Shown here one piece after another: positions 20,394 through 43,264 of a DNA stretch of 64,000 nucleotides; the stretch's first letter is position 1; every line of letters begins with the position of its first letter. The translations under genes were made by a program, and so were the position numbers. A model generated the notes under the pieces. It worked only from the letters and a program-made list of their open reading frames with translations. It was not told the DNA's origin and did not search any database. The DNA is taken from the NCBI RefSeq assembly GCF_000497125.1, contig NC_090601.1:434001-498000 (forward strand), read 5' to 3'. Origin of the DNA: Spironucleus salmonicida. Lineage: Eukaryota.

Positions 20394-20715
20394 TGAGTTT
20401 TCAATATTCTTTTAGCATCATAATAAAATTTTGGTCTATATCGCAGTAAATTATAGTATTTAATGATGATTCATTAAACTCAACGTCGATCTTTTTTTTA
20501 TTATATATACTTTAGGGCTATTATTTAATTTACTAGCGAAATATTTATTTATAATAATTATAAGGTAATTTAAAAGAAAATTGAATACAATATAAACCTA
20601 ATTCGCTGTTTTATTAAATTAAAAATTTGTGTAAATTTTTATATAAATATCATTTATTCTTCATAATTTTTAATATGTTCGGCTATTATTTATAATCTTG
20701 TGTTATGTTTAAAAA

Positions 20716-21450
20716 ATGCTTCCTCAGACAAATATTAAAAACTTTCGATACAATATATTGAAAAAGGCATCCTATATTTTAGAATATAAACTAGTGTATA
20801 ACACACCAAAAAACAAAGCGTATGAGGAATGTAAAATATAAATTTAATCTGCTTCATTATCTAATAGAAAAAATTATTTGAGAGATAACTACTCTTTTAA
20901 TTCTTCAAGTTGTAATTTAGATAATTAAACTATTACGTTTTTATCTAACGAAGAGTAATTGCATATAGACTAAACTAATACTATAATTCAATAAGGAAAT
21001 ATAAATTTATTGAAAAAATTACATTTTGATTAAAGTATTAATATAAATTATACTATAATATTTTCTGAATTAAATTATGTATAAAGAAACTAATTGATAA
21101 ATGATATTATTAAGATAAATATGTAATAACCAGATAAAACATTGAAAGTTAATAAAACGTTGCTGAATAATATCATCTTTAATAGTAACAGGTTGGAAAA
21201 GCAATCTATATTAATGAATAAACAAAATCTAAAATAAAAGTAGTAAAATAATTTACTAAAATAGTAAATGTAAGAATACGAATTACTGTTTGGTATAAAT
21301 GGGTCTACACTGCAGTAATATCTAGCTTTTGTGAAATACTAGAACTCTAATGGTTAACATCTATAATTAAATGTTAATAATTTACCTCCTAGTTATGTAT
21401 TAATACCTATAACAAACGACGCACTTATCAAGCAAAAAATGAGTGAATGA
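20716..21450 (+). CDS. Asn/Gln-rich hypothetical protein, 244 aa; last 12 codons lie inside repeat R2
   Basis: Open under table 6; ends ATG AGT GAA TGA. Confidence 0.55.
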
Positions 21451-21454
21451 AATG

Positions 21455-22123
21455 TCACTACAGTACTTTAACATCATTCTATATTAGCCATGATATGATT
21501 TATTAAGATGCGCTGCTAGCATGAATTAGCTTGCGGATAAACGGCTGCGCAACGCAAATTACAACTATTTTAATGGCAAACTCTGCATGACAGAGCAGCT
21601 TCTTTTCGTTGATAATGTTAAGATTCTGTTTTATTGCACCTACTAAATTTTCGTAATTACCTAGAACTGGAAACTTAGTGAACTGCTGTACTAGCCGTTA
21701 CGCGTTTCGAGTCGGGAAGATAACTCCTGATATCTAATTATGGAATAACGTATCGAGGGTGGAATATAGTGTCTAATACGATTCTATCGTCGAATTCACT
21801 AGCATAGACCGTATCTTTAGATCTGGGACGAAATGAAAATCCACTGCTCGATTCTAACGCTGCTATTGTGCAAGCGCAATATAGTTTGAAAGTCTGATAA
21901 AGTCTATATGTGCGAAGGGTTGAACAGATAATAAAAGGATGTCGGGATTCTGTGTAGTTGTAGTGCCAGTTAGAGTTAGTTCGATGATCGACTCCATATC
22001 CATTTTGGATAACCACAATATAATATTAAATATCATAGTTTCATTAAAATTCGTATATTGCAGGATCACCAGGGGTTGTTTATCTATCTACTAGAGTTGC
22101 ATGTTACATTTAACAGTTATCAT
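21455..22123 (-). CDS. Hypothetical protein, copy B of 7548-8216
   Basis: Offset 13907; frame intact. Confidence 0.65.
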
Positions 22124-22348
22124 ATATTGTTATAATATATTTCTGAATTCAGCCCACTGTGCTTTCTATCTTGTGTTATATTAGCGAATATTTAAACCAA
22201 ATCAATGCAGCCTAATGGATACACTGTTAACATCTAGGTATGGGAGCGTAATTTTCTGGTTGCGTCTCAATTGTAGGAACATAAATTACTACTATTTCTT
22301 AATCTAGTAACCATGCAATAGCCAGAAAAACGTCATTCGTGGGTATTG

Positions 22349-22891
22349 TCATAGAATGCCCTTCCATTTTGGGCTATACAGAGCTGGGCTACGCTCTGTT
22401 ATTTCGTATGATATAAACTTGGCCTTCCGCCGTTCTCTTCTGCAGATCCGGATGTCTGCTGGCTGGTATTGGTCTTTGAGTGCCAAGAACTCCGGCTACT
22501 CTTTGATCTTGCACATCTGGAACCTATCAGATTAACATATCTTGGGGGTCTTGCCAATAGATGGTAGCGAGAGGTTCGTGTACTAGCCTGGCCCTGGTGT
22601 AGTGATTTATTTATCCTCCTTACTTCTGTCATACGCATTGATGTGTTGGCCATTCTATGTGTGATGACGAATATGGTAGGTGTTAGGTGCTGGACTGTCA
22701 AAGTTAAGCTGCGACAGGAATGAGTATGACCGGTCGTCAGGTTGCACACGTGAGGTAAGGTGTGGAGGGAGGGGCTTTTTCTTGACTTCCGGCTTCTGAG
22801 GACGGATAAGCTCCGCTATCTCCAGGAGCCCCTTTGCCTGAGCTAGGAGTCCAGGAATCTCCTTCCGCTTGATCACTGTTTCCAGCTGCAT
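22349..22891 (-). CDS. SHIPPO-repeat protein, copy B of 8442-8984
   Basis: Offset 13907; frame intact. Confidence 0.75.
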
Positions 22892-22999
22892 TTTTGGCAG
22901 GATATGGAATTCATATATAGAGTGTGGGAAAATTCTTCATAGAAACGGAGTGCGTTCAATGACCTGGATCACCCGTCCTATCCTGGTAATAACGTTATC

Positions 23000-23455
23000 T
23001 CACATGCTGGTACTGGTCTCGCTCTCCCGGATCTCACTGCTACTGACCTTACGGCCGTTCTCCTCCACTACACCGCATATGTGCACCACCATCTCCACTA
23101 ACCCCTTCTACCGTCTTAGCCGATTCAGCACCTTTGCACCGTCCTCGGTTTCCTTGCTCACAACGAGCTAACACTCTTCAAGCTCTAGCACTGGCCCCAC
23201 AGGGTCGTTCAGTTCCACCACAGAAATATCTCCTGTTAATGGGCCCAGCCCATCCAGGAATTCCTACACGTTCTGGCACCGTGCCTCGAAGGGCTGGATA
23301 AACTTCGACAGCGACTTCTTCTACACGTATGCTTGTGACATCACTCCAACGATGATCCTATCACCGCGTTATGCTACCTCTGCTACCTTCCTTAGTAGGG
23401 CATGGTGACCTACGTGGAGACGGTCAAAAGTCCCGGCGGCGCAGATTGTTGGCAT
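23000..23455 (-). CDS. PPAT: Phosphopantetheine adenylyltransferase, copy B
   Basis: Same motifs as 9093-9548. Confidence 0.9.
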
Positions 23456-23494
23456 TTCGAGAGAACTAAAACTATATATAATAATCCAAATCAG

Positions 23495-23755
23495 TCAGTA
23501 AGTTACAGGTTGGGTGCGAGTCTTGCCTCTGAAGCCCCTTGTACTAGGCTGGTACTTTCTGAACAGGTGCTACACATCGTAGTCGAAGCTGACGGCTGCC
23601 CGCCTGCTGTACGGGGAGTGCATCAGGACATAGGGCGTGTAGGTTTCCTCCATCTGGATTCCACGAAACACGTCGTACCTGAATGCATCGTCTATGTTTT
23701 TGGGTGTCTTTGGATCCTATAGCATCTTGAGCTTGGCCGAGCGTGAGAGCATCAT
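23495..23755 (-). CDS. Small hypothetical protein, copy B of 9588-9848
   Basis: Offset 13907. Confidence 0.55.
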
Positions 23756-23999
23756 TTTTAATTTGGGAGAGGTAGAGATATATCAGATACGTATGCACAA
23801 AATAACATGATTCCTGAAAGAAAACTGTCCGTTGTTTATAATTATACAGCTTCTGTATGTCCAGTTTTTCCTTACCTGTTTCGAATAAACAAAACTGGTA
23901 CTCAATCAACAGCCTCTCCAACATATCTAGGTGGTTGCGGAGGTATAAAATTTTGGGAACGACCCTTTATATATCCTGGCCGTACACCTCACTCCCAAA

Positions 24000-25307
24000 A
24001 TGCAGAATCCGCTCATCGTCGAGGCCCATGCACAGCTGGGGACAGGAAGCTTCCAGGATGCAGTGAAGCTGGCGCTAAATGCCCTCCAGTACCCAGGGAT
24101 CACCAGGGACGAGGAGTTCGCGCTCTATCTCATCATCATCGAGGCCTACACGGCCGCTCGGGAGTACGCGCTCGCGGAGGCCAACGTGCTGCAGGTTCAG
24201 CAGGTCCTCCCAACACATTCCGGGTTGCGGAAGCAGTTCTACCTCGACGCGGCCAGGGTGTTCGTGGCCCTCGACAAGCCGCTGCAGGCTTTGCAGTTCC
24301 TCGACGACTACCAGTTCGACGGGCTCCCCATGGAATCCGTGTTCTACTCGCTAAGCGCGGCGGCCCAGCTCAGGCTGCGGAACTACCCCGATGCGGCCGT
24401 GTCCCTGCAGAAGTGCGACTCGGTGGAGGCGCAGGCGCAGCTCTTCGCCGTCCAAAACGACGTACCCGGACTCGAGGGCGCGGCCGAGGTGCTGCTGCAG
24501 AACGACCCCAACTTCACCGGCCTGACGCAGATCTGCGCCAACCTCGCGGTGATGTCCGGCGAGTCGCAGAAGGCACTCTACTACGGCCAGAAGTGCCGGG
24601 AGTTCGCCGACATCTGGGGAAACTTCGACGGCGCCGAGCTCCAGCGCCAGGTCCAGTTCGTGGTAGAGGGCGAGTGCGCTGGCCCGGTGGAGGGCATTGT
24701 GGGGGCATTCGTGCTGGTCAGCCGCCGTGAGTACCTCCAGGCCCTGGAGCACATCCAGACCCTGCGGGGTGGCAGCACCCATGAGAAAGCGCTGCTGGCC
24801 CTGTCCGCCCTCTGCTCTGCCGGGCTGGGGGATGCGCCGGCGACCATGACGAAGCTGGACAAGGTCGGGACGCAGACTTCCTTTGCCATGCACGTGACCG
24901 GAGTCTGCTTCCGCCTGCTCGGGAACTACGGCCGCGCCAAGCGGTGCTTCGCCGACGCCCTTAAGACGGTGCCTCCCCGGAGCCTCTTCCGCGCCGAGGT
25001 GCTGACGAGCCTGGGGGAGGTGAAGTGGGTCACCGACGACCTCCAGGGCGCGGTGCGGGACCTGGTGGCCGCGAAGGCGCTCGTGCTCGCCAACTGCGGC
25101 AGGGGTGGGTTCTACGGCCGGGTGTGCGCGCTGCTGGGCCAGATATACGACGTGCTCTACGTCCTGAGCGGCAACAAGGTGATCCGGGGTGAGGCCGTGC
25201 TGGTCGTGGAGGACGCCATCACGGGGCTGGAGGAGCGTGGCCTCGCGGAGGGGGCGGTGTGCAGGGAGCTGCGCGAGCTGCGGGGCAGAATACGCGCCAG
25301 GAGGTGA
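24000..25307 (+). CDS. TPR protein, copy B
   Basis: Differs from 10093-11400 at two residues (I/T, Q/L). Confidence 0.75.
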   Translation: MQNPLIVEAHAQLGTGSFQDAVKLALNALQYPGITRDEEFALYLIIIEAYTAAREYALAEANVLQVQQVLPTHSGLRKQFYLDAARVFVALDKPLQALQFLDDYQFDGLPMESVFYSLSAAAQLRLRNYPDAAVSLQKCDSVEAQAQLFAVQNDVPGLEGAAEVLLQNDPNFTGLTQICANLAVMSGESQKALYYGQKCREFADIWGNFDGAELQRQVQFVVEGECAGPVEGIVGAFVLVSRREYLQALEHIQTLRGGSTHEKALLALSALCSAGLGDAPATMTKLDKVGTQTSFAMHVTGVCFRLLGNYGRAKRCFADALKTVPPRSLFRAEVLTSLGEVKWVTDDLQGAVRDLVAAKALVLANCGRGGFYGRVCALLGQIYDVLYVLSGNKVIRGEAVLVVEDAITGLEERGLAEGAVCRELRELRGRIRARR

Positions 25308-25319
25308 GAATTGGTTAGG

Positions 25320-25766
25320 TCACTCGGGGTTGAACATCTGTTTGAACATGACCGCCACGTCGAAGAACTCCACGTCGTCCATGAAGTCCTTGATGTCCTG
25401 GCTGGGACCGCCGACGATCCTGCCGACCACGAGCTGCGTGAGCCTCTTCTCGAGCTCTGGCATGTTCTTGCCGTGGTGCTTGATGAGGCACCTGAAGCTG
25501 TCGTCCACGCCCATATCGGTGATCCTGTCCTGCCCAGGGTGCCGAGAGATGTAGTCAGTCACGTCAAAGACCACGCCGCCCATCACTATGTGCTGCCTGC
25601 CGTTCTGGTTGAGGTCGGCCGCTGTCATATCCTTGATGCTCATTCCGTTTGTATACTTAGCGAGGAGTTATCGAAGATAATATTGCGGTTTATCGTTACG
25701 CGAAGGTACCGGAATCTAAACTGGACGCCAAGAAGGGCTCGCCGTTCTAGGAGTATTGGGTAGCAT
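25320..25766 (-). CDS. Cytochrome b5-like protein, copy B
   Basis: One L/M difference near the C-terminus versus copy A. Confidence 0.85.
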
Positions 25767-26637
25767 GCGGGATGGATCTGCCGGTGCGGGGCGGGGTGTC
25801 AGGGTCGGGCGGTTTCATGGGGCGCGTCCCGTTTAGTTTTGTGGTAAAATGTAGTACTGAATTTTTTACTGGAATAGATTTTTGATTATATAACTGGTAT
25901 TAATAACTATACGTTTAGGCATATGGTATATTCAATATTGGTGTTTGCATATTCTAAACTAAATTATTATTAAGTTCATACTAATAGTTTTCACATCTTA
26001 TTATTGATATAAAATGTAACTTCATTACTAATAAATAATATATTTAAATTTTTCTATTAATTTACTTTTCAAGATTGTATTAATTTTAAATTAAAAATTA
26101 CCTTATTTCTCACATATTATAATATATTTTAAATTATCCTCCTGTATTATAATTTTTTATAAAATTAAATATATACTAGATACTGTTCGAATTCTAAAAA
26201 TATAACTTAGTTTAATTAATAGCATTCAAAAATATATATTTAGCATAAATTTAGTTCATTAACAGTTTATAACCTACTAACAAAGATATATAACAATTGA
26301 TTATCTGTTATTCTATCATTATCTCTTGGTTTGTTCAATAAAAATATATTTATTAGTTAATTTTTATATTAAAATACTAATTCTGTATGAATTGATTTAA
26401 TAATATAATACATTGCGACTATTAAATTTTTATTTTAGAATAGTATAAAATCAGAACTACAAATCAATATGTGTTTCGTCATTAATATACCTTTAAATAT
26501 CTAATACTGATTTATATTTTTACTGTATTTAGATTAAAATACTATACATAACTATAAAGTCACTTAATCACTTAAGTGAAAAAACGAATTATCCTATATG
26601 AATATTATGTTCATATAAATATTATTAACGTTAAATA

Positions 26638-28257
26638 ATGTTAATTTTACTATAATTTTCTTGCTTTGAAGATGACTCATAGGTTATCTATAACCCTATA
26701 ACAGCTTAGGTTACATTTACAGCAAAATATATTACTACTGAAACTTAATTATGTAGTTTTCTTCTATAAAAAACTGCTACACCTCAGATAAAACTAGGAC
26801 CTATCAGTTTTATAGGAAATCCTATGATCTTTACTTCAGAAGATAACATATTTTTAGTATTAGATTGCCCTACTCCAATATGTGCTACAGAATGTAGTAC
26901 TTCATTTGATTCTAAAACCTGTCGAGATTGTAAGGTTCAAAGAACAAAACTTTGTGCACCAGCTTCTGAAGCAACTGTAGCCCAAATAGAATATATATTT
27001 AATGAAGAAAACATCTAGATGGAATTTGCTGCTGGAAAATTTCTAGTATCAGCTAGCATAAGAGGTGGGTGTTTTTAAAATTACAAAGTATTATATACAT
27101 AAAATCAACTTATTTTTAGTGGAACCCCATTTTTATGTCCTATTGAATTGACTGCAGAAGCGATAGCTGCTTAAGCAGCCAATAATTGCAAAAAACCAAT
27201 TGGGATAACTCCAGTAGATTGTCCATGGATATAGGTAGTAATAAACGATCAGGTTATTAGTGTCGATGCATATAAAAAAGAGGACCTCTTAAGTATGGGA
27301 TCTTTTAAAATGGATTGTGATGTTATAGATAGTTCTTATTAAAAATTATGTCAGTAACTCATGAAAGAAGTAAATTAGTTAAATGATGTAACTATTTAGA
27401 TTCAACTTGCTGTTGCTATTAAAAGAAATATTGGTACTACTCCGAAAATAGATATGCCTTTAATGGAATCATACTTAATAACTGGAAATGTTAATGAAAT
27501 TACAGCAAAAGATAGCTCAGATTGCTTTTAAGATATATAAATAGATGCTTTTGAACATGTTAGTATACTTCATTTAAAATGGAATAACAGTCCAAAGAAT
27601 TGTCCTGATGAAAAGTATGATCAAGTTATAGTTGAGATATCTGGTTTTACTAGCGATTTTTATCAATATAACAATATTTTACCCAGCATCACATCAGAAA
27701 TTGAATCATTTGAAATAGCTTGTACTAATGCAGTAAATCAGACTGAATGTATAGGGAATTATTCCATAGCATTAAATGACTATCGGGTGAATTAAGTTTT
27801 GTAATTAATCTATTTAAAGGATGAATAAATAGTATCTACGAACAAATTTTCAGTATCATTAGATTAAGAATAATTTAGGAACGCTACAATTGTTATTTTT
27901 GAAGAATCTATTTGTGTTCATATAGATCATGTTCCATGGGCTAAAGTTATATCAGGTGACCTTGATTTATAATTAATAATGAATGACTAAAATATTAAAT
28001 GGAGATAACTTTATAAATCAGACAAAACTCCTTATTGTTCCGCAATCTCACGATTGACATCATCCAAGATATCTTTTGATTGTCTTTCTAGCTAAGGACA
28101 ATTATTTGTAAATGGAAATGAAATGCCAGTAGAAAAGTGTTAAAATGCATAACCACCAGCATTATTCTGGAAATAAGTATTAATATTAGGTATAGGATTT
28201 TCTGGATTTTGTGCACTAGTGGTTTTAATCTTCTTCACAAGGCGTATAAAGGAGTGA
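26638..28257 (+). CDS. Cysteine-containing type I membrane protein, 539 aa
   Basis: Short hydrophobic N-terminus, spaced Cys, C-terminal TM (VLILGIGFSGFCALVVLIFF) plus basic tail; ends GAG-TGA. Confidence 0.8.
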
Positions 28258-28275
28258 GATAAAATATTTTTGCAA

Positions 28276-29706
28276 TCATAAGAATTTTTATTCATCCGTT
28301 TTGGCGTTTAGAAACGCTAGAGATAGGGAAAAACAAATAATCGCTATAAAGAATATTACTAATGTATTGTTTACATTTTATGAAACATGTATAACATAGT
28401 AATATTAAGTATAATAGTCAAGACCTTACTCTTTAACGGTAAGAATAAATTCAACATATTAACCTATATACTATTTATAATCATCAAATCTCCACGCAAA
28501 AATATATCTTTATACTTGGTATAATTCGGATCTTAACATATCCTCTCCAGGTATGTAAATCTCAGCTTGTATTTCAAAGTCTAGATTTTAAGTAAACACA
28601 AATATAAACTGTCCATCCTTAAAATAACTATATAGATTTATTTTGTATTACACTTCATCTATTATACTCTTATAACTAACTCTTCTCCACAATGCACCAG
28701 TTTTTTAGTTTTTCAAATATATAGTAACTGGGAATTCACGCAATAAATCTTAATTAATAATATGACGTGCCTACTAAATCTTATAAACACATACTGTATA
28801 TAGATCTATATCCCAGATGGCATTGCAGAATATACCAAAGTATTAATAAAACTCATCATATTCTAGAAGAAAAAATAATTCCCCAATCTAAACTTAAATA
28901 GATGTCTAATCTATCTAAGATGGTAATGGGTCATCATTTAATAGAAGAATGGTAGTTATAAACTAATCTTCATCGATAGACAATAGTTAAACGATGGAGA
29001 TATTCTATAGAGAATTAACAAATATATTGTAATAATCTAAAGTCGTTAAGAACCCAAAAATACTAAAATCTACAGTAATTGTAACTTGATTGTGTTAATA
29101 TAAGAACTATTATTTTAGGCGTTCATAACATTAAAATTCATTGCCACAACAATGATAGTATGCTTTATATTCAGCATCTGAATCTAAAGCAGCATCTTAA
29201 TTACAATCTATAGAATTTGAATTAGACAAATTAAGATGTTCTCTAGTAAAAGATTATTATACAATATCATCATTATCTGAAATAAAATAAACTGTAAAAT
29301 TTATGAGATGGATATTAAATGGACAATTATTATCATTGAATAAAAGTGCTAATATACCATTCTGAGCATTTATATGTAAACCAGTAAGTGATAAACAGGA
29401 AACCATTGTTTCATCGACAAAAATCAATTGATTTATTAACCTTGGTATATTTTAATCCAGATCGAGAGATAACGTTGCATATGTAATATCATCAACATTA
29501 ATATGATTAATATGAAACTACAGTGGATGCAATATGTCTGGATTTGCAGTTTATGAAACAAAAAAAGATTCTGTTCCAATTGTTAACTTTGCCGTAAATC
29601 TATTTAATTACTACCTATTATTTTTTATTCTAATATCAATTAAAGCTTTTGTTTAAGAGATCATCAAAGGTGAGGTGATTTAATAGTTTAAAATAAATAA
29701 TAGCAT
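28276..29706 (-). CDS. Type I membrane protein, 476 aa; distant paralog of 36379-37860
   Basis: Signal-like N-terminus, C-terminal TM, shared NGILALLFNDNNC and HCCGNEFQC blocks. Confidence 0.75.
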
Positions 29707-30242
29707 TTTTATAAAGATGCAATATAATATGTAAGTAAATATAATATGAATGAGTGGTTAATATGTTTACTATATAAGAATATATAATACTTAGAATATA
29801 TATTTGAGCTCGTATTAAGATAAATTATGACATAATATAAATATGTGATTATAATGCATTAACAATATTTATATTATTTTGAAGGAATTATTAAAAATAT
29901 AATTAAATTTGCTAAAATACGATATATGATTAAATATTTATGCTAATATAATATTCAAATTGTCATCTTTATAATATTATTTATTATTAAATTACATTAC
30001 CATTACGCCAATAAAATAAAAGGATGCGAATCTCAGTCACCTACTAAAATTTATATTACCATTCGAGGTTTATTATAGGAAATTAAAATCTCTTAAATCC
30101 TTAGTTACATCTCATAGTTACTAAAAAGAGTATTATTTTTTATAAATTCACACTACTTTTTTCAAAGTTTTATATATTATTATACATATTCCATGAATAT
30201 TAATTCCTCTACATTTGTAGGACCTAGCGCTTTATCTAATAA

Positions 30243-32825
30243 ATGCCCCTCCGCTAGCCAACGGATGACAAAACCACCATGCTAGAACACTAAATTACAG
30301 GCTCTATCGTCATTGATTCTGGCATTAAAACAATCCAAAAGCTCCCGCACAATCCACTGAAGCAGAAAAAACTCAACATTTTCGAGCAGCGTAACAAGAG
30401 CAAACCCAAGGCGAAGCAGGCTCAGCTACCACTGAAACCTCCCAAAGAGACCGTTGAAATCTCCCAGAATTCGTTCGAAAATTCCGTTTAGCACCTCCCT
30501 TCCGTTTCGAATTTCCGTTCCCCTGGATCAGTCCAGCAGACGACAATTCGCGTCGCAAACCCCGAAATCCAGGAGCTTACAGAACTGACTGAGGACTTCA
30601 ACACGGTCCCGCGTCCCCAGCTCCAGCATAGCTCCGTCGCGAAGCTCAACGCCGCGTTCCGGCAGAAGCGCTCCATCGATCGCTCGAATCAGTCAGTTTC
30701 AGACATCTCCATCTCGCAGAAGTCCGCCCATCGCTCCATGCTCCCGAACCGTGCCTACAAGCTGCCCAAAACGACCACTTTCGGGAAGCGCGAAATGGAG
30801 GTCACGCAGGACGCCAAGAAGTTCCTCCTCGGCTTCTCGGACGAGCGCATTGCGATCGCGCTCCAGAACTTCAAAAATGGCACCATCACGACCGATTTGC
30901 GCCAGATCCAGTCAGCTATTTACGTCTCGTCGATCAACACGCAGATCAACGACTACCACAAGAGCTTTATCGGGAGCGATATGTCCTCCGCCTGGCCGCA
31001 CTACTTGTGGATCAGCCTCTGGGTCATGCTGGCCTCCTGCGCAATCACGCTCAGCATCGTTTTCGGATGGATCAAGGTCATGCTGGAGATTCTATCCTAT
31101 ATGTTCTACTTTTTCATCAGTCTGGAGTACATTCTCATGTTTGCAGCACTCAAAACTGGATAATATCCTACAAAACCTGTTATGGGTGAGGATGAAACGG
31201 TAAAAATCAGGAACAACAAAATCTGCCTCATTATACCCGTGGGATGGGGTATTGGTGGGTTGGACGAACAATAGAAGATCGAAAAACGCTAAGGTAAAAT
31301 TGATGTACTTACAAACACAATTGATGCTGCCAATGATGTTTTCGAGGCGTAGGATATTTTCATTTTCCATAATTCATCGGATCAGGTGCTTCCTGACGAG
31401 GTTATGTTCAAGTGCTGTGAAAACCGTTCTATTTATGTTCCAATTGCTATGGGTTCAAAATCAATTGCTGCTTATTATGGAGCACTCTTAGGTCAACATT
31501 TAGGATACGAATATTGTATAGTAATGGACGATGATACTAGGCTGCCACGCGAGCTTGGCATAGTATTGAATTCTGATCTTAAAGATGATGCTTACTGTAT
31601 GGCTATAGCTGCATCGTCAAATGATGATTTATCAACTATTTCTAACAAAGCACGCCTGCTAATCGGACTTTAAGATATTGAATATAAATTGTCAGACCTT
31701 GCGAAACTCACACAATCAAATTGGTCAAACACCGCATCTGTGCTTGCCCCTCATGGGGCTATCAACATGTGGCGCACTAATATGCTTACAATTATCATGA
31801 ATGAGCATAACTGCATTTTCCACGGAGAGGATTACTAAATGGGTCTCATAATGAGAATGAAATGGCCAAAATCGAAGCTGGGCATCATAAGTAATTGCAT
31901 TATCAATACAGTAGCCCCTGCAACACTCAAAGAGCTCTATTTCTAACGCTATACCTCATGGGATCTTGCAGCACAGCAGTTCCTATGGGGTGGTTTTTGT
32001 GCTTCTCAGCGTTCAGCACATTACATGCAGGTACTTTTCTGCTTACCATGCTCTGTAGATAACATTTACCTCAGAATAACAACGTTAGAAGATGTGTGGA
32101 CGGTTATGCAAGATTATCTGCGCGTCGTCCTACTCTCATACCACATCATTACTTCAATGGTTTGGGGAATTGTGAATATCCCAGTAATGGTTATGTATTT
32201 AGTCGTTTTAGGCTCATAATGGGTCATTGCCTGGTGCCTCTAGTATGTAAAGTTCGGGAAGCGGCCAGATCTTGCGGTAGAAAAATAATTTAAGCTACGC
32301 ACGGTGCTAATCTTTCCAATTTACCGCTTCTGCTTCTCGTTCGTCCGTGTAGCAGCGTTGTGCCGTTTTATGCTCAAGTTTGAGAGTATAAAGCGGAACG
32401 CCACGCCGATCAAGTAGATGAACCTTCCGTAACCAGAAGTAGACGGGGGACTGTTCTGCGGGTCTAAGGAGCGGGAAGACGTAGACGTCGAAAAGATCTA
32501 GCAGGTTATCAAAATGACATTAGAGAAGGTTTAGGGCTAACGTAGGAATTTTGTTGCAGGTAGCTACATTGAAAATAGTTTTAGAGGTAAAAGTGAAAAA
32601 ATTGGAAGAGAAATGGATATAGAAAGAGGAAACTAAGGGGAAATTGGAAATTAAAGCGGACATTTGAATTTTAATGATAATGATACTGGAGTAGATAGTC
32701 GTAATTAAAGTCAAAATGGGATTGGGGAAAATGGTATACGGAATAGTTTCATTTAGGATAAAAGCATGCGAAAAGAGGGACTTGGTAGGCAGGAATTAGA
32801 TGTTTCTGTTGTCGAGGAAGAGTGA
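30243..32825 (+). CDS. Membrane-integrated processive GT2 glycosyltransferase (chitin/hyaluronan-synthase-like), 860 aa
   Basis: TM helices flank a catalytic domain with MDDDT, QDIEY, APHGAINMWR, GED and QRYTSW (QxxRW-like). Confidence 0.85.
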
Positions 32826-33006
32826 GCTGTTGGAATATTATATAGAAAATAGGTAGAATCCTATAAAGTGTGCAAACGTTAGTTTGACACAATAAGTGAT
32901 ACTAAATCATAATATTAATGTAATAAAAATTGTAGATATTTGTTAAAAACTTAAATAGTAACATTAGTAATATTCATTATTAATTACATATGAAAAACTC
33001 TATTAA

Positions 33007-33234
33007 ATGACGAAAGTGAATAATGAATATTCAGATTTAAAGTAAGCAATAACTCCTCATGCAACTTTTGCTGTGGATGATTTATATGAGTACTTACCGT
33101 TTACTTGCTTGTTCTTCCTAATCCTAGTGTTTTTACTTTCATTTATAGGATGCTAACATAAAGTTAGTAGATGGTCGAATATCTTTATAAACAGAAAATA
33201 TAGCTCTCTAAAATAAAGATATGCAGTTTTGTGA
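33007..33234 (+). CDS. Small single-TM protein, 75 aa
   Basis: Hydrophobic LPFTCLFFLILVFLLSFIGC; open under table 6. Confidence 0.5.
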
Positions 33235-34049
33235 GTTAAAAACATGACTTTTATTTTCCTTAGATTAATAAAAATTAATAGAATCTCCATTAGTGAATTT
33301 GGATTTTACTTACTATATAATAAGTATTATGTATAGTAATATTTTCCGACTAAAATGTTAATCATACATAAAGTTAATAAGTAACAAAGAAGCATCTTAA
33401 TTTTTATAAATCTTAAAATAATTATTATGTTTGCTAAAACATTAAGGGATTAGTAACTATACTTAGAATATTTTATGATATATTATTGTTAAATTAATAT
33501 AAGTACGAAAATAAAAAACTTATCTAGTTTAGATTATTATTAATTTGTATAGATAATGTTATATACTACATAAATATAATTTTTTCATTATAAATATAAA
33601 GAACATTCTAAATAGTTATTAAGATGTAATTAGCTAGGTATTATTATCATGAAAATTACCTTTGTAGTTTTTGAATTGTTGCAAAAAATTTAAATACAAA
33701 AAAATTATGAAAATATTGACAGGTTCCATTCACAAAACATGATTAATACTTGACATGATGTAGAAAAGATAAATTACTAGTCTGAAAGTAATTATTAATT
33801 GAGTTAAACTAAAAATACTGTCGTCAAAAACTACATATAAAAACTAATGTGAACTACGATTCCATATATAACTAGGTAAATAAAAAATATATAATTGCAT
33901 TGATACTACTTAATTGAAATCAAAAAAATGTAGTTTATATTTTTATATATCATTATATTTATAATATTAATATTTAAATGTATATGTACAACTGGACTTA
34001 TGAATATTAGTATATATATGATAGATATTGAGATTTTTAATAATTAAAA

Positions 34050-34541
34050 ATGTAAGATAAAATAGTAGCGAAACTTTACTCTTAAGTTCCTAGTAAATTA
34101 TCAAAATTGAATGAAAGAACATAATCATCTACTTTTTCTGTTACAAATTCTAAGTTCAGCGGTGTGTATGCGATCTACACGCCAAAGGTTGGTGTGGACA
34201 AGTTTCTTGACAATGCTAGCTGCATGCCCATGTACAACCAGGAGAATTTCAAGCTGGATAAGTTTGAAACGAAAGACGTGTCAGAAGGCGTTAAGCTGAA
34301 TACGCTGAGCTTGTCAGGACGGCATACCGTGGAGCTCAGGCTGATTACCGTTGCCTCCCAACTAGACGGTAAGCGGGCGGTCATCTAGTACTGCGAGGAG
34401 AACTTGAACGGTCATATTTTTGTTTAGGACGGTGAGAGCGTCCGCTTCTGGTCCCATTTCGACGTTCCTGGCGCCCCGGCGATGATATTGAACCTGGCAG
34501 CGAAGAAGAAGGCGCTGCAGCTGGCCATGCTGGACGAGTGA
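34050..34541 (+). CDS. Hypothetical protein, 163 aa (possibly START/SRPBCC-like fold)
   Basis: ATG 34050 to GAG-TGA; first 30 codons lie outside repeat R3. Fold guess is based only on the C-terminal DVPGAPAMILNLAA helix. Confidence 0.65.
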
Positions 34542-34715
34542 GCGAGGGGTGTTTTACTGACATTATTACCGTTTCACTGCTGCACGAGACTACCAGGATA
34601 CCTTAGATGCACTAGGCCCGATAACTGCGACCTCTGATTCAAATTTACCTCCGGTACCTTAAAAGGTCGCACCGCTATCCGCTCCATATACCGCCGCAGT
34701 GCACCAGCGACCACC

Positions 34716-35369
34716 TCAGAATACGTCGCCGTTCAGTATCAGCTTTCGGGCCATGTCCTCCTCGCTGATGTCCTCCTCCAGAAACTTCATCACCACATCC
34801 TCCTTGTAAATCCTGCCCAGGCCATCCTTTTAGTCCCTAATCTTCAAATCCAGCGCCTGGTTTTGTATGTCGAGCTTCTCACTCCCCAGCTGGACCAGCT
34901 GCCTGTTATCCATCTTCGCCATCTGAATCTGCTGCGCCACCTGCCGCTCCACCTCGGACAGCGCGCCAGCCTGGCTCAGCTCTTTGTACTTCTTCACTGT
35001 CTGCGCGCTAGTGACTCGGGACTCGGCCTCAAAGACCGTCTGCCTCAATACTTTCATCTCGGCGTCGCTCTTCCGCTAAATAGCCAGCATCGCGAACTTA
35101 TCGTGCTCCGCGAGCTCGGTTATGGCCTTTACCGCCTTCTACTTTAGCTGAATTTTCCGCTGCTGGTGCTGCGTCATCAGAATCTCAATCTGGTCTGTGA
35201 GGCTGAGACCCTGAGTGGCGCCGTATCGCGTTAGAACGTTTTGAACCTGGTGCATCAGCTGGCCTTGCTGCTTTAGCTGCTACTTGAGCTGCCTGTTCTC
35301 CTGGTCCAGCTCCTCGAGCAGCTCGCGCTGGGTCTGGTTCAGGAGCTGTAGATTGGTCGAATTTAGCAT
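34716..35369 (-). CDS. Coiled-coil protein, 217 aa
   Basis: CTTCCTCCAAAATG start context; Q/E/L-rich heptads. Confidence 0.75.
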
Positions 35370-35411
35370 TTTGGAGGAAGTTGGTATGCGTATAATAAAT
35401 ATACGCACGAA

Positions 35412-36326
35412 ATGGAAAGCTTGCACCAGCAGCTTAGCCTGGGCATCTCGAACGGAGTCAGCTGCACCGTTAGCATTGATGTTGCAGCTGCAGTTGTGCT
35501 TATTGAGCAGCTGATTTGTGAGTTTGCTGGCCCGTCGGCCACATTGCAGCTCGTCGTACTCTGCGATGACATTGACATCGCAGGGGCGCTGAGGGTGACT
35601 CAGAGCGTCCAAAAGGCACCGAAGGAGGCTGCAGTCGTTTCTCTGTCCAAGGAGAGCTTCTTGTTCTAGGAGCGGAGGCTTTTCCTGCGGATGAAACACG
35701 TGACTGCCATTTTTGCGATCAACGGCGTAATCGGGCGCGAAGACCTGCACCAGACCACCAATGCTGTATTTATATCGTTTACTTCGACAGGTGGTGCATC
35801 GAATGCAATCAGGCTAGGCCACCAGTCCGAGACTAGCCGGATCTACTATTACCGCCTACAGAGCCCAGCTTTAGTATTCACGCTGCTGCATAAGATACGC
35901 ACTGTGTACAGTGCAAGGCGGTAGGTTATTATAGTCTCGGATGCAGTTACCGTGCACTTTGCCTTCAAGAAGCGCTGCGTTCTCAGCGAGTGCTTCACCT
36001 CGGCCATGAGCCCGAGAACACGTGCGCTGGCCCTCTAGCGGTACTTTTCGAACCCTGCTCACACGCTCGTCTGCGAGGACTTGATGCTGGAAATCTCCAC
36101 ATTGCAGGACGTTAACCTCATAGTGGTGGAGTATCGAGAGGACCGCCTGCTCCATGATACCTTAAACCGCATCTAGCAGCTCAACTTCAGGGGGGACCTC
36201 GTGGTTTTTAGCTTTGAGCGCGCGCTGGCCATGCCTGGGACAGTGGAGCTGGACACGTCGTTCCGATAGTAGCGTTTGGGAACAGTTGGGATCAAACAGC
36301 CGAGGCGCGATGCCTGCGACCTATGA
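35412..36326 (+). CDS. Hypothetical protein, 304 aa, possibly a degenerate RecA-like helicase fold
   Basis: Open under table 6; alternating alpha/beta pattern; weak helicase C-domain resemblance. Confidence 0.65.
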
Positions 36327-36378
36327 TTAATACTAAAGAATACCTTCTACATTTCGGTTTTTCTGGAAAAGTATTTCC

Positions 36379-37860
36379 ATGACTAACGTATTTATAATGA
36401 ATGCACTAAATGTTTAAATGCTGATGCTCTGCTACTTTCATCGAATCATGTCCCCGCTGGTGATTTCGCAGAACCATGCACAAATAGATGTGCTGATCTG
36501 TAACAAAAACCAGTCGTCTAAGGAGATTGCGATTAAACTTACGGTTGGGCATCGCTTCGTATTCACAATAGCACACTCCGACTCTGATACCGTATAAACT
36601 CTGGTATTTGACCTGCGCAACCACTATATATCCAGTATTAACTACGCCTTGCTGCAGTTCGAAGTGTTTGGGACGCCGCTGTTGATTGAGAAAATAAAAG
36701 TCGTGGACGACACAGTCCAGACCTGCATCAAACTAGCACGGCTTGGAATCGACATCAAAGATGGCGTGATAGCCCTCCTTTACGACGACAACCAGTGCAA
36801 GGACGTGATCGCACTAATGAAGTTTACAGTGCACTTTCGCACCGATGACGGTAACTATTCGCATCTAATGTACTCCCGGGACTAGCTAAACCAAACCAGT
36901 CGCAAGAGTATCAACTGCAGCGTCGCTGGAAAGTACGATCCTAGCTAGGTAGAGCAGGCCTTCTTCAATTGCTGCGGCAACAACCTTCAATGCTTCTAGA
37001 TGCTGCGGGATAAATTCTAACTCAAGTCCAACTCCGCAAACATAACAGTGCACTTTGCTATAAATAACTTCGAGACCATTCAGCGATACCATAATGTCTA
37101 CGTGGACTCGGTGCAGCACGCGGAGGTAATATCCGAAATAGCACTGGACTATGACGAAGTCAAAGCTTTGTTGTTACTATTTTATGAGGATTTCCTGCCA
37201 AGTTATATTAACAAAGTCGAAATGTAGATTCAGATCGACGAGTATTTTTTCGTATTGCAGGCCGATGGCATTTCCATGGGATACTCAACATCGTGCGCAG
37301 TCGAGACCACTTACAACAGCTACTCTCTGTGCAGCATGAATATCATGAAGGCGAATGAGATCGTCCAGCAAAACACCCTGAGAGAGTTTCCGATTACCCT
37401 ATTTCTGCGGAACAACGAGACCAATATCCTTTTTCGAAAGGTAAGCTACAACAGCACGATTAACAGCTTCGAGAATAGAATCGACGTGGCGAACTACTTC
37501 CGCGGCGGCTACTTCTACTTTGTGTTCAATGCCAACATGGGCCTGGACATAGAGGCGGAGATTCATATTCCAGGGCGCCCGATGCTGAAGGCCCGCCTAG
37601 AGGCGTCGGAGCTGTATGTGTACCGCTGGAAATTCTAGGACTACAAGCAATTTACCGGCCAAACCGTGGACTTCATCCTGTTTATGGAAAACGAGCACAA
37701 CGCCGGCAAGACACAGTTTCTCTACTCGGTCCAGATTTACTAGCAGACCATTACGTGGTAAGTCAATTTAGTCATTTCTGCCGTTTGCTTCGGCCTGTGT
37801 TTGCTGTTTCTAGGGGAGAAGTACAGCGACGTAGACGAGGAGCAGTTCAGCATAAGCTGA
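36379..37860 (+). CDS. Type I membrane protein, ~493 aa (start may be 36397 or 36418)
   Basis: Single frame; CCGNNLQC block; C-terminal TM VNLVISAVCFGLCLLFLG. Confidence 0.75.
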
Positions 37861-37891
37861 ACGGCAATATTGCGTGAACATAACATCCCCC

Positions 37892-40342
37892 TCACTTGAA
37901 CTCCTGAAGCTTGTAAATGCCCCACTTTTCGTTCTTGCTGTTCATCTTCAGAATAAGGGCGTTCGCGGCGGCCTTGTTAAACCCGCCCACCTTGTTGAGG
38001 GAGTTCAGCAGGTAGAGCATCTTCTGCTGGGAGTTTTGGCAGTTCTTGGTTATCTCGTACACGCTCTCAAGCACGAACAGGGCGATGGAGGGGAAGTAGG
38101 ACTTGATCGGCGGCTGGTTCTCCTTCAGGCTGTTGTTGAAGTCCAACATCTTGTCCTGCTTCTCGATGTCTATCAGCAGCTTTCTCTGCGCGTAGAAGTA
38201 TGCCCTCGCGCCAAGCGAGGCGTGGTTGTTGTATCCAAACATGTCGAACGCGCAGAAGCCTATGGAGAACTGGGACTCCTGGAAGATCATCTTGAACAGC
38301 CCGACCACGCTCTTGATGTCATCCCACGCGGAGAACAGCTGAACTAATTCTTTCATCTTTTCGGCCAGAATACCCTTCTGTTTATCCTGGAAGCCGGTCT
38401 TCCCGACGAAGATGACCTCGAAGAAAGCGATAGCGTCGTCCTCAAACTTGGTCGTGCACTTGCTCGCAAAGGCGGGGAAGTCGGGCTGGTTAAAGTACGA
38501 GTAGGACTGCTGTGCGAAGATTTTGTAGATATCCGTCATGCCGTGGATGGCGAAGTAACTTTTATTCGCGATATCCCTCTTCGCTGCCTCCACCTCGCTA
38601 TCGGAAAACACGCCGTCGTACTCCTCGAATACCTGCAGATAGGCCTTCGCGATGACAAAATGAATGAAGCTGAAAATGAACTCGCGGGAGTTGGCTGCGT
38701 TGAACAGGCTGTACACGTAGAACTCAGTTTTCAGACAGAAATCTATGGCCATGTCGAAAAGGGCCTCGTTGCTATTGGTGCTATTGTAGCTATCGGCGAA
38801 GGCCGTCAGGATCTGCTCGAGCACATATTTCTCCGCACCCTTCGAGCACTTGATCTTCTGCAGGAGCTGGAACTTGTCCTTCAGGAGCTTCGCCTGCTGG
38901 TTATTCTCGAACACCTTCTGTATGAAAACGGCGAAGCATTGGCTGTTCTCGATCCTATCAACGATCTGCTCGTCGGTGCTGACATTGAGCATGCCCTTCA
39001 CTACATGAAGGAGGCCACAAGTGTTCCAAATTTGCAAAATCTCTGAAAAGGGCTGCTTCTCCATGCTAATCTTTTGGCGGTTGCTCTGAACCACCTTGGT
39101 GTCAACACTGGTATCTAGGCAGCACTTGATTTTGTAAATGACCAGGGAGTCCACGATGTCGGTGTTCAGCTGCTGGATGTACGCCCGGTACGCCTCGATG
39201 CGCAGGCGGGACATGAGTTCCGGGGAGTCTTTGTGCACGGCCTTATTTACCTGGTCGAAGATAAGGATGGAGAGCACCAGGTACTCGGACTTCTCGCGCG
39301 TGGTCTTGGAGAGCAGCGTTTTAACGATATCCGCCTTCACGCCCTCAAAGGTAGCCTCAGTGGCCGCGGCGAGTTTACTCAGCACCAGCTTGTCCTGCGT
39401 GTCCTTTCTCAGGTCGCGGAGAAGCACCTTGACGAGCGCATCGGTCACGAAGTCCTTGCTGCACAGGTTGCTGCTCAGCAGGTAGAGCTGCGCGATGAGC
39501 AGAGCGCACCCCTTGAAGTGGAGGTCGTAATTGCTGTTGAACTGCATGATGGCCTGCGGGTCGGCCTTGGGCGGTGGCCTGTACTGGGAGAGCGGGGTCT
39601 TGTAGGTCTCGATCTCCTTGGCTATGTTCGCCTTGACCGTCTTTTCGAAGACGTCGAGCGCGCTCACCGAGTGGGCATGCTTGTGCTGAAGCACCACGTA
39701 GTGAATGAGCCGCCCGTAGAGGTTAATGAACTTGTGCTCCAGCGCCGCCTTGTCGTACAGCTGCACGAGCATACCGGCCAGGCACTCCTCGAAGTCGGCG
39801 AGCTTGAGCCCGTCGAGCAGCTCCGCCGCACTCTTGCGCATGAGCTCGAACTGGTTCATGCTGTACTTGTTCAGCATCTCCTTCACCTGCCTGTTGAAGC
39901 TGTCCACCGGCTGCTCATTCCGCTTGACGCCCAGAATCTTGTTCTTGAGCCTGTCGGGAATCACACCGGCCTTCCGCGCGGACATGTACTGTTTGGGGTC
40001 TTCCTGCTTGCTCAGGTCGTAGTAGTGCTCGAAGGTCTCCATGTCCGCTCCCTGGGGCGGGTTTTCGCGCTTCTCGGTTTCGACGCGAAACTCGCACACC
40101 TTCAGCAGGACGTCGAACTTTTCGTCAAACTGCTCGAAGCTCTGGGGGCTGAACTCGAAGAGCGCTGCGGCATCTCGAAAGAGGCTCAGGTCGTCCACGG
40201 GGTACCGGTCGATGATGCTGTGGATCTTGAACTGGGGGTTGTCCTGCTTTTACGACTTCATGGAAGCTTTCATGGCTATCACTGCGGTTTCTTCCTTGGA
40301 GAGCTACTTATCTACGGTAAGAGAGAACTTATACTTATTCAT
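37892..40342 (-). CDS. MIF4G-domain protein, eIF4G-like, 816 aa
   Basis: VKEMLNKYS...LYDKAALEHKFINLYGRL matches the first MIF4G helices; frame extends to ATG 40342 under table 6. Confidence 0.78.
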
Positions 40343-41968
40343 TTTTAGTGAAAAGGAAAGATGGAAGTGAAAATATATACTATGATATAATTATAATAAT
40401 ATGCTAAATAATTACTAATTATGTTAAGTGTAAATTAGTAATTAAACAAGATGTCTATCCTATAGACCAAGTAACTAAAGCGATTTTTAGCTCTTTAAAA
40501 ACTACAAAATGATATGTATGCAAATATTCTTTTAAGGAATTAATAAAATACCATAAAAAGTGAAAATTTTATATGTAACTAGGCTGAAGAGTCAACAACA
40601 CTGAACTTGCTAAACAAGGTTATTTTTAAATAGCAGATATTAAAGATGATAACAGCCGACTTGTCTAAAATAGGAAAATGAGGAATGCAGAGTTATACAT
40701 TAAGTTCATATTCATGTGAGTATTACAATCAAATCAAGTAATTGCGAATAACAATGTTTTTATTAGGTAGTATTTGTTACCTATTCTTAATTAGACACTA
40801 ATAGAGATGAATTGCACGGATGGACTTGAAAGTCAGTTTAGATCTAAATTGAGTCTAGTGAATTTAAGTTATTTTACTATTACCTGCGGTAGTTTTCAAA
40901 TATAGGAAGTAATGGTTGGTATAGAAAAATAATCATAAATATAATAAATTTATAAATTTGAGTTAAAATAAACACGTTTTATCAGTCATATAATCAATAG
41001 GATCTTGTAACATTTCTTTATTCTATTAACAAATGTAGTTAATTCTGAACTCCAACTCTTTAGCTGAATGAATATTTAATTTGATTTTTTACATTATAAT
41101 GTAGATGTAATGATTATTTGCATTTAATATGAATTGAAACTTATTAGTTAAAGCAAGTACATTTCATAGAGCCGTCGCAGTATGTTGGACGAAACATATG
41201 GTGAATCTTGGTCTGAATTTTCGATATAAAAGTTTCAGTTACTTTATAATTTTATCAGTACTATTTTTTGCATTCCAGTCAATATTAAAATGTATCCTTA
41301 GAATATTCTTAAAAAAATATCATGGCAATTAAAATATTAAAGCTAAGTGCATTGTATGGCTATTTTATAATATATATTTTTGGTTATCAACCTATATAAA
41401 ATGTATAGCTAGAGTCATCTCCGGAGATCAAGCGTTTGCGATTTCAAATGCATATTCTAAATTAAAAATAGCTATAAGGTTAATTATGGATATAAATTTG
41501 GACACCTCAAAATGCAGAACAACTATTTAAACTCAAAGAATGTTTTCCTAACACTATTTATTATCCTAAAACTTAATTCTACTTCCTTGGAAGTGTCTTT
41601 ATCTATATTAACTTTATTATAATTAGTACCTTGAAATATCTTAATTGTTGCTGTATTTATTTTACATTCTATATTCTTTAGTAGTCTATATTTGTTAACT
41701 ATTATTTTTGGTTTTATCTAGATTTTACTACATCTTACTTAATTTTTATATATAAATTAATTAATGAATAATAATATATATTTTTAAAATTATTATGTAG
41801 TTTATACTATATATTTAAATATATATTCTAGCTATAGATCTATGATTAAATAAAATATACAGTTTCTTTATTTAAGATATTAATTCCATTCTGGAATTTT
41901 TATTTTAACCATTAAGTTGAAAATATATGAAATATTTATTATCAATAATCATTATACTTCAAATCAAA

Positions 41969-43264
41969 ATGTTAGCTGCTTTCTTCATGTACTAATGTTA
42001 TCTCTATTAGTATGACAAACCAAACCCAACTGAAATTGATGCAGGTATCCATATAATGATTACTAACCAAGGTCTTAGCAATTATTGTGAGAGGAATATT
42101 GGCCTAGCTATCTCCACTATTTAGTCAAACTTACCCCCAATAAACTTCAAGCTAAATCTGGGAATATTCACCATAGACTTAACTGATGGGAAGCTTCGTC
42201 AGTTAAATCTAGATGGAATAAGTCTCAAGGCCTATCAGAACCTAACAATTCTAAATATATCAAAGGTGCAGCTTGATCTGTATTTTTCTCTATAAATTCA
42301 GCAAAAATCTTTCCCATATCTCCAAGATACAGGAACTCTTAGCCTCATCGTGGAAGAACTCTCATTAAGCACTTAAGGGATGGTTGAGTTTCGTGATCCA
42401 GCATGCAAGAAAAATTTCACTATCGTTACTAGTAACACGATATTGTCAGTTAAGAGATTCTAAGTTACGTTTGAATGTGGATTGTAGGTTATTCTTAACT
42501 CCATTAGTGGCTTGCTAACAAATGTTATGCTCGACCAGCTTAATGGACAACTTGGTCAATCTTTGGCTAGCACGATTATGTAGACATTGCTAACACTACT
42601 ATCTAATATGGCCCAAGAAGCAACAGTGTGGTGGGATATTCGAGTATATACTGATCAACGTTCCATGGTTGGAATAGCGTTTTAAGATAATTTTCTGACT
42701 ACCATGTTTTCAGGGTAGCGCGTTAGACTGAATCTAAATAATATGGCTGCCGTTGGTTGGCTCGATACTCCAATTTCATCAAAGCCTAACTTCTACACAG
42801 ACCACGATATATAATATCTAGTGGAACGAGTTGTCTTCAATTCTGGCTTCCAGTTCTACTTCTCAGATGTAGGTGGATTCGAAAAGGTTAAGAAGACAAA
42901 GGGGATCACAATTCACAATATTACACTTCCTAGTTTCAAAAATACTGGAGCTAAACTTCTCGTTGATATTGAGTTCGGCGGGGTACGAGAAACTCTCATC
43001 TACCTAGAACCCATACGTTTGTTTAGCATCGACATGGGTAAAGGATTATTCTTCGGTAGCCTAGTCATTGAGTTGACAAATCTCGTGCCACAGTCCACAC
43101 TTCTTACGGATATGTAACTAGCCGACTTGGCTTCCTACTTCTCCAAAAGTTTCTCCATTTACCATTTTTCTATAAATAACGTAGTCGGTGTGGACCTCAC
43201 ATCGGTATAGATAATCTTTCTAAATGAGAACTGGATCCATGTAGGGATGAACATGGAGAAATGA
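41969..43264 (+). CDS. BPI/LBP/CETP-family (TULIP) lipid-binding protein, 431 aa
   Basis: Signal-like start; GIHIMITNQGLSNY resembles the BPI N-terminal motif; typical two-domain length. Confidence 0.7.

Follow-up and report, generated by a model that had tools for sequence, protein, structure and literature searches.

A 64,000-nucleotide stretch of the Spironucleus salmonicida genome (contig NC_090601.1, positions 434,001 to 498,000 of the forward strand), called the window hereafter, carries at 30243..32825 on the plus strand a gene for what is almost certainly an active membrane glycosyltransferase of family 2 (GT2) and of the synthase type. We put the probability that this gene is the orthologue of the synthase of the N-acetylgalactosamine (GalNAc) polymer in the Giardia cyst wall at about 45%. 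A preliminary description of this DNA, made from its letters, had proposed the gene as a candidate for the cyst-wall synthase, and this candidacy is strengthened by the present analysis. The cyst-wall synthase is regarded as the best single reading because the predicted chemistry is right, namely that of an inverting GT2 using a uridine diphosphate (UDP) sugar, whose nearest relative at the sequence level is an N-acetylhexosamine (HexNAc) polymerase. Moreover, the gene is conserved in cyst-forming diplomonads and co-regulated with the wall programme in Giardia, and Giardia has almost no other candidate.

The core of the protein (residues 225-736) was modelled by AlphaFold2 with a pLDDT of 92.7 and a pTM of 0.91. 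In the model, two N-terminal transmembrane helices (residues 250-273 and 277-305, or 26-49 and 53-81 in the numbering of the core; 30990..31157) precede a GT-A catalytic domain (residues 324-560, comprising strands and helices 100-336 of the model; 31212..31922), which can be superposed in alignment on the GT-A cores of GT2 enzymes with known structures. An interface helix that carries the motif QRYTSW comes next (residues 562-582, model helix 338-358; 31926..31988), followed by a C-terminal membrane region of three long helices (605-641, 646-672, and 681-711; 32055..32375), two or three of which are hydrophobic enough to span the membrane. Both membrane regions are also apparent from hydrophobicity, with hydrophobic 19-residue segments at about residues 255-301, 628-664, and 688-706, and the C-terminal one aligns with the C-terminal helices of CvHAS, BcsA, and PgaC. 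The earlier statement that the GT2 domain is flanked by transmembrane segments is therefore correct on both sides. Some features within these helices are conserved or unusual. E295-Y296 on the second N-terminal helix is invariant in the fornicate alignment, the first half of helix 605-641 is polar and conserved (R611, D617, W619, Q623-D624-Y625, and R627), and helix 681-711 is studded with Arg and possibly amphipathic.

Comparison with solved structures leads to the same class of enzymes. In a Foldseek search, hyaluronan synthases took all of the first 12 places (E = 3.5e-10 to 1.2e-8), with chitin and cellulose synthases after them. VIA-align gave Z scores of 21.8 for the Chlorella virus hyaluronan synthase CvHAS, 19.4 for bacterial cellulose synthase BcsA, 19.0 for Xenopus hyaluronan synthase XlHAS1, 17.4 for plant cellulose synthase CesA8, and 17.1 for chitin synthase Chs1, with 355-377 residues aligned and the membrane helices included; soluble GT-A enzymes reached at most 15.8 over 175-266 residues. 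The alignment to CvHAS (8snc) covers 359 residues at a root-mean-square deviation of 3.5, from the second N-terminal helix through the last C-terminal helix. Class I hyaluronan synthases share with the window protein the whole order of parts, that is, two N-terminal transmembrane helices, the GT-A domain, an interface helix with a Q..W motif, and C-terminal transmembrane helices. On the other hand, identity to CvHAS and Xenopus HAS1 is only 11-14%, the window protein has QRYTSW in place of QxxRW, and it bears long disordered tails at both ends that the hyaluronan synthases do not have. Likeness to chitin synthases and to bacterial and plant cellulose synthases is one of fold class.

At the level of sequence, the relationship becomes visible through the family. 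Searches with the single sequence gave PF13641 as the best Pfam match (E = 0.22), and no match in NCBIfam or among the sequences of the PDB; the family profile against PDB sequences returned nothing but a chance match to ZDHHC20 (E = 0.49). Among 47 aligned family members, PF13641 was matched by 40, PF13632 by 36, and PF00535 by 13, and weak matches were found to the GT21 family PF13506 (7 members, best E = 2.2e-6) and to Chitin_synth_2 PF03142 (6 members, best E = 4.5e-5). The Q..EY and (G/L)ED motifs of the window protein resemble those of chitin synthases. Membership in the chitin-synthase Pfam families (PF03142 or PF01644) was nevertheless rejected, since the window protein has no match to them; the PF03142 matches of two relatives score 21.2 and 22.7 bits, under the 27-bit cut-off. 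The sole characterized enzyme that can be aligned at the level of sequence profiles is PgaC, the poly-β-1,6-GlcNAc synthase of E. coli. The hhalign match reaches a probability of 97.8% (E = 1.1e-12) over 345 columns from the second transmembrane helix to the C-terminal helices, with the DxD, E-Y, ED, and Q-R-x-R-W motifs in register; the corresponding match to BcsA is weak (11.7%). PgaC is a processive homopolymer synthase that uses a UDP-HexNAc. It differs from the window family in that it lacks the Ser before Trp, keeps the Arg, requires PgaD, and forms a β-1,6 linkage, and its identity is about 18%. Taken with the model, Foldseek, and VIA-align, this profile alignment bears out the membrane-embedded GT2 of synthase architecture that had been proposed.

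All four motifs named in the preliminary description were located, namely DDD (residues 429-431; 31527..31535), QDIEY (477-481; 31671..31685), GED (528-530; 31824..31832), and QRYTSW (568-573). Variable positions in the last motif aside, all 12 of the 12 fornicate orthologues keep DDD, Q..EY, GED, and Q-R-..-S-W unchanged. DDD, which corresponds to the DxD motif for metal and UDP, is aligned to DGD of PgaC, and GED to its "TED"; D530 of GED is presumed to be the catalytic base. Conservation was further counted in 115 relatives with the full architecture. The three columns of DDD hold Asp in 115, 108, and 115 of them; those of Q..EY hold Gln in 114, Glu in 115, and Tyr in 115; and (G/A)ED has Glu in 95 or Asp in 20, followed by Asp in all. 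The first nucleotide-binding motif, identified by alignment as H376-N377-S378 (31368..31376), reads D-N-G in most relatives, with Asp in 73 and His in 32 at the first position and Asn in all 115 at the second. In the last motif, the counts are Q 113, R 114, V 75, then R 50, K 23, T 14, or N 8, then S 97 and W 113. Hence Q568, R569, and W573 are kept, and as read from the alignment the family form of QxxRW is Q-R-x-R-S-W. In hhalign, QRLR-W of PgaC and QRIR-W of BcsA stand opposite QRV~SW, with a one-residue gap facing the Ser. From the placement of this gap, the Ser before Trp would be a family-wide insertion, and Thr571 would occupy the place of the canonical Arg. The change from Arg to Thr is limited to diplomonads and Kipferlia, and Carpediemonas and Aduncisulcus have Asn. 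According to the preliminary description, an unusual substrate or linkage may lie behind the altered motif. This part found no support, because the Ser is found in 97 of the 115 relatives, from many eukaryotic groups, and the Arg-to-Thr change is specific to a clade; the motif is thus neither confirmed as a mark of the substrate nor tied to the GalNAc polymer.

Orthologues were found across the fornicates, one per sampled species, with E values of 4e-234 to 6e-103. Identity is 71% in Hexamita, 59% in Giardia muris, 57-58% in G. intestinalis, 56% in Kipferlia, and 40% in both Carpediemonas and Aduncisulcus, and further assemblies contribute to the set. In a midpoint-rooted tree (FastTree with LG+gamma, 115 sequences, 467 columns), they form a single clade that branches as do the accepted species relationships, in which the window gene groups with the orthologue of Hexamita inflata (P0002), the nearest named one. 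By this placement, its source is a diplomonad of the Hexamitinae. Orthologues in encysting diplomonads, on which the preliminary description had made its proposal depend, are present in G. intestinalis (P0157) and G. muris (P0007), and H. inflata is counted among the cyst-forming diplomonads as well.

The Giardia counterpart allows expression to be considered. The orthologue in G. intestinalis WB is XP_001704207 (A8BY36), a protein of 901 residues named "putative Glycosyltransferase", and that of isolate P15 is named "Glycosyltransferase, putative". Among the entries listed in published RNA-seq tables of differentially expressed genes, the sole gene so described is GL50803_102322 (PMC8700996), which we take by its name to be the gene of XP_001704207. 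The same locus, as "putative glycosyltransferase GL50803_00102322", is listed separately from "ceramide glucosyltransferase GL50803_0011642" in a paper of 2025 (PMC12548405). In the encystation time course, the log2 fold change of GL50803_102322 is 1.88 at 14 h, 2.16-2.41 at 17.5-31.5 h, and 2.78 in cysts (PMC8700996). Induction in encystation, expected from the proposal, is therefore seen at about 5-fold for the Giardia gene matched by name. This course is similar to that of UDP-GlcNAc pyrophosphorylase GL50803_16217 (2.18 rising to 3.88); the epimerase GL50803_7982 rises from 4.05 to 5.85 and cyst-wall protein CWP1 from 5.3 to 7.7 (PMC8700996). Giardia has very few glycosyltransferase genes, five being listed (PMC12548405). 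Four of the five appear in the differential-expression table, and among those listed an increase in encystation is seen for GL50803_102322 and GL50803_11642 only. The latter encodes the ceramide glucosyltransferase gGlcT1, which is the other membrane glycosyltransferase induced in encystation and is listed as a separate gene; its log2 fold change goes from 3.41 at 10.5 h to 4.96, and GL50803_11595 and OST are down for most of the time course (PMC8700996). A sheet of genes with Myb2 sites (CWACAG) contains GL50803_102322, its orthologues from P15, GS, and G. muris, and also CWP1 and the epimerase (PMC8700996). The identifier 102322 was not found in two Giardia proteome supplements.

Cyst wall synthase (CWS) activity was reportedly described by Karr and Jarroll in 2004. 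According to the available text of the later literature, the activity has a high specificity for UDP-GalNAc (PMC13315228), and the sugar polymer constitutes roughly 60% of the cyst wall (PMC4807828). As to the gene, the synthase had "not yet been molecularly identified" in the excerpt of a 2010 article (PMC2924369), and in that of a 2026 review the activity is "tentatively called" CWS (PMC13315228). In the accessible portions of PMC3986054, PMC4807828, PMC5171811, and the 2026 review PMC13671459, the activity or the polymer is treated and no gene is given for it. All five enzymes of the UDP-GalNAc pathway and cyst-wall proteins were reported from the S. salmonicida genome, with no synthase named in the portion of that paper at hand (PMC3916229). 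No gene assignment for the cyst-wall synthase was found in the searchable full-text literature, a body from which subscription journals and bioRxiv supplements are absent. Thus, the earlier remark that the synthase gene is not firmly assigned agrees with the literature from 2010 to 2026.

In an exhaustive search with HMMER, the relatives numbered 323 at E <= 1e-3, 154 at <= 1e-10, and 10 at <= 1e-30; a word-index search with an alignment (A2) retrieved the fornicate set again and nothing further. The sister of the fornicate clade (in alignment A3) consists of P0015, P0019-P0021, P0029, P0030, P0044, and P0048. These are K/N/I/Y-rich proteins from AT-rich sequence in metagenome or run assemblies, and the unusual His-Asn first motif is common to them. 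In the wider family, the members with a name are from "Eukaryota sp." GEM-RC1, TZLM1-RC, and TZLM3-RCL, from Phalansterium, Perkinsus, and Telonema, and from the fungi Knufia and Neolecta; the first three are, we assume, skoliomonad metamonads. All of 30 named members looked up are hypothetical, uncharacterized, or labelled with generic Pfam or COG terms. Seven of 49 distant relatives scanned contain H-type lectin repeats, and two of the seven bear a kinesin motor at the N-terminus as well. The lectin repeats are enclosed either by two hydrophobic segments or by a signal-like segment and a single hydrophobic one; from this placement, the repeats are probably extracytosolic, and the kinesin and GT-A parts cytosolic. 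These two, P0033 ("Eukaryota sp. TZLM1-RC") and P0123, each unite in one polypeptide the GT2 core with a kinesin motor and two H-type lectin repeats that face outward. Outward lectin repeats are as expected if a synthase exports its polymer and retains it on the outer side. GalNAc is the ligand of the founding H-type lectins, and an analogy to the kinesin fusions is found in fungi, where chitin synthases occur as fusions with a myosin motor. A wider proposal can be built on this, in which the orthologue group is the giardan (β-1,3-GalNAc) synthase and the QRxRSW family as a whole represents old eukaryotic synthases of GalNAc-containing wall polymers, some of them with an outward lectin to hold the nascent fibril and a kinesin to ride on microtubules to where the wall is laid down. 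Such a proposal is rather unlikely.

In the best reading, the enzyme is an active, inverting, membrane-embedded GT2 built like the synthases of hyaluronan, poly-N-acetylglucosamine, chitin, and cellulose. Its cytosolic GT-A domain would bind the UDP-sugar via DDD, D530 of GED would deprotonate the acceptor, and W573 on the interface helix would stack against the terminus of the nascent chain, which may then exit through or along the bundle of flanking membrane helices. If the cyst-wall assignment is right, the product would be the fibrillar polysaccharide of the diplomonad cyst wall, a β-1,3-GalNAc homopolymer made from UDP-GalNAc. The gene model, the motifs, the fold class, the fornicate orthology, and the encystation induction of the like-named Giardia gene are established by the analysis; processive action, donor sugar, linkage, and location of the enzyme are predictions.

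Several observations weigh against this assignment. Where QxxRW has its canonical Arg, the window protein has Thr, and an additional Ser precedes the Trp. The link from XP_001704207 to GL50803_102322 is one of matching names alone. The induction of the latter, about 5-fold, is seen from 14 h, whereas GL50803_11642 (log2 fold change up to 4.96) and the epimerase (up to 5.85) rise from 10.5 h, and its level is already 5.6-6.2 log2 counts per million in trophozoites. A competing candidate for the synthase is GL50803_11642. In addition, no CWACAG occurs within 300 bp upstream of 30243 (the window mean is 0.2 per 300 bp), although this absence is uninformative; the encystation motif of Hexamitinae is shown in Fig. 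2B of PMC3916229. Orthologues are also present in free-living Carpediemonas-like flagellates, which may lack cysts or a GalNAc wall. The lectin-fused relatives are 25-31% identical and belong to another clade. H-type lectins may also have ligands other than GalNAc; according to the title of one 2026 preprint, discoidins bind methylated rhamnose. Finally, the mannosyltransferase PcManGT matches the model with Z of 21.2-21.3, close to the 21.8 of CvHAS. While the fold class is clear, processivity is left unproven by the fold, because an enzyme that does not polymerize matches as well as a hyaluronan synthase.

This last point leads to the idea that the protein is a membrane glycosyltransferase that is non-processive or shortly processive and acts on a lipid-linked or glycolipid acceptor, for instance turning hexosylceramide into di- or tri-hexosylceramide or assembling a dolichol-linked glycan. 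PcManGT (6yv7) is an archaeal membrane enzyme from Pyrobaculum with a minimal cellulose-synthase-like fold. It acts on a lipid-linked glycan and, unlike the synthases, is not known to make a polymer; it is a top structural match, with 325-326 of about 346 residues aligned. The small number of membrane helices (4-5) and the weak GT21 matches in 7 of the 47 family members would fit such an activity, and di- and tri-hexosylceramides change during Giardia encystation, with no enzyme named in the available text (PMC6668603). However, the Trp and Gln of the presumed acceptor-stacking motif and the conserved polar residues of the membrane helices persist even in very distant relatives, and the PgaC profile match extends through the membrane helices. 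Hyaluronan synthases of similar size are processive, and the outward-facing lectin repeats in relatives fit a secreted product. A lipid acceptor is therefore considered rather unlikely, yet it deserves to be taken seriously. Close to this idea is the proposal that the protein is the diplomonad ceramide glucosyltransferase itself, orthologous to gGlcT1. Some databases label the Giardia orthologue "Glucosyltransferase", and a fungal cluster named "putative ceramide glucosyltransferase" is found among the look-alikes in the ESM Atlas. But GL50803_11642 and GL50803_102322 are two genes in Giardia papers and tables, none of the 15 cluster members listed (of 26; 6 named) is called a ceramide glucosyltransferase, and the window protein has no PF13506 match. 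With separate gene entries in Giardia and no GT21 profile match, identity with gGlcT1 was rejected as very improbable.

A processive enzyme may also serve another purpose, as the synthase of a different secreted HexNAc or hexose glycan of the cell surface that is made outside encystation too. The basal level in trophozoites would be accounted for in this way, and GL50803_102322 drops 5-10-fold upon host-cell contact according to the accessible part of PMC7461913. Orthologues in free-living fornicates, and a wider family that spans fungi, Perkinsus, Telonema, Phalansterium, and skoliomonads, are compatible with a more general role. Against it, the portions of the literature examined mention no other Giardia polysaccharide, and the gene appears among cyst-wall genes in the list of Myb2 sites and keeps a high level in cysts, so that we consider this explanation improbable but not negligible. 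A protein without catalysis, be it a relic or a scaffold, is hardly credible. The first-motif Asp is indeed changed to His and the Arg of QxxRW to Thr, but the His is common to 32 of the 115 relatives, and fornicates show no variation in DDD, E-Y, the ED base, Q, R569, or W573. Core identity between diplomonads and Kipferlia is also as high as 56-71%.

The gene model depends on the genetic code. Under NCBI translation table 6 (code 6), 30243..32825 is one open reading frame (ORF) without intron, from the ATG at 30243 to the TGA at 32823-32825, with 860 codons before the stop. The placement given in the preliminary description is borne out by this frame and by the orthologues. Within it, 22 in-frame TAA or TAG codons are decoded as Gln; in the standard code the same region splits into frames of at most 223 residues. 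Both Q477 of QDIEY (31671-31673) and Q568 of QRYTSW (31944-31946) are TAA codons, and the corresponding columns hold Gln in 114 and 113 of the 115 relatives. Since these columns are nearly invariant, they give independent support for TAA as a Gln codon in S. salmonicida. A pseudogene riddled with stops was considered and rejected, as code 6 accounts for all 22 codons, two of them at invariant Gln positions. Contigs assembled from four public runs match the window from 30234/30248 to 32826/32827 with no difference and no gap, every in-frame TAA and TAG included, and these codons are thus not assembly errors of the window. The four runs belong to one study, and their type is a guess; no RNA run is listed among the public runs that hold the gene. 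The G+C content jumps at about 30200 from 0.14-0.24 to 0.42-0.60 and returns to 0.24 past 32800; the gene itself has 40-60% G+C. A longer table-6 frame from an ATG at 29940 was rejected because its added part lies in a spacer of 14-24% G+C which the orthologues do not reach.

The ends of the run contigs were noted separately. Their starts range from 9 bases before the A of the ATG to 5 bases past it, and they stop at 32826-32827, two bases past the stop codon, with adapter letters behind 32827 in three of the four runs. The AT-rich flanks have no coverage in these runs. If the runs were RNA, such ends would fit a transcript with almost no untranslated regions, but they were not used for transcript ends or expression.

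Outside the modelled core, both ends of the protein are poorly conserved. The N-terminal extension (residues 1-224; 30243..30914) is rich in Ser, Gln, and Lys by composition and has no Pfam domain; it is probably cytosolic, judging from the topology of synthases. The C-terminal tail (residues 736-860; 32448..32822) is rich in Gly, Glu, and Asn.

The neighbouring genes give no functional hint. The ORFs at 28276..30003 (minus strand) and 36154..37860 (plus strand) are paralogous (34% identity over 493 residues, E = 3e-106), and each has a C-terminal membrane helix and no Pfam match. The former has 25% G+C and 44 TAA/TAG codons, and the latter about 48% G+C. As the former is a real gene at such a low G+C, AT-rich stretches are not all spacer. 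At 26638..28257 (plus strand), a Cys-containing ORF of 539 residues with a C-terminal membrane helix, a short basic tail, 25% G+C, and no Pfam match may be another surface protein gene. An ORF of 816 residues at 37892..40342 (minus strand) matches MIF4G weakly and below cut-off (E = 6.7e-4), and one of 435 residues at 24000..25307 (plus strand) matches TPR weakly, also below the Pfam cut-off. The window as a whole (1..64000) is a strong mosaic in which the G+C content switches between blocks of 45-71% and blocks of 14-30%. Because code 6 gives many long overlapping ORFs on both strands in the AT-rich blocks, genes cannot be judged here by the length of an ORF alone. No tRNA gene was found in the 64-kb window.

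The cyst wall is the basis of transmissibility for Giardia and its relatives. A single conserved gene that has the fold of a polymer synthase and is induced in encystation makes the question of the cyst-wall synthase directly testable, and if the assignment is true, the enzyme would be a parasite-specific target for blocking transmission. The QRxRSW family to which it belongs is widespread in eukaryotes and entirely uncharacterized, and its fusions with lectin and kinesin parallel the myosin-chitin-synthase fusions of fungi.

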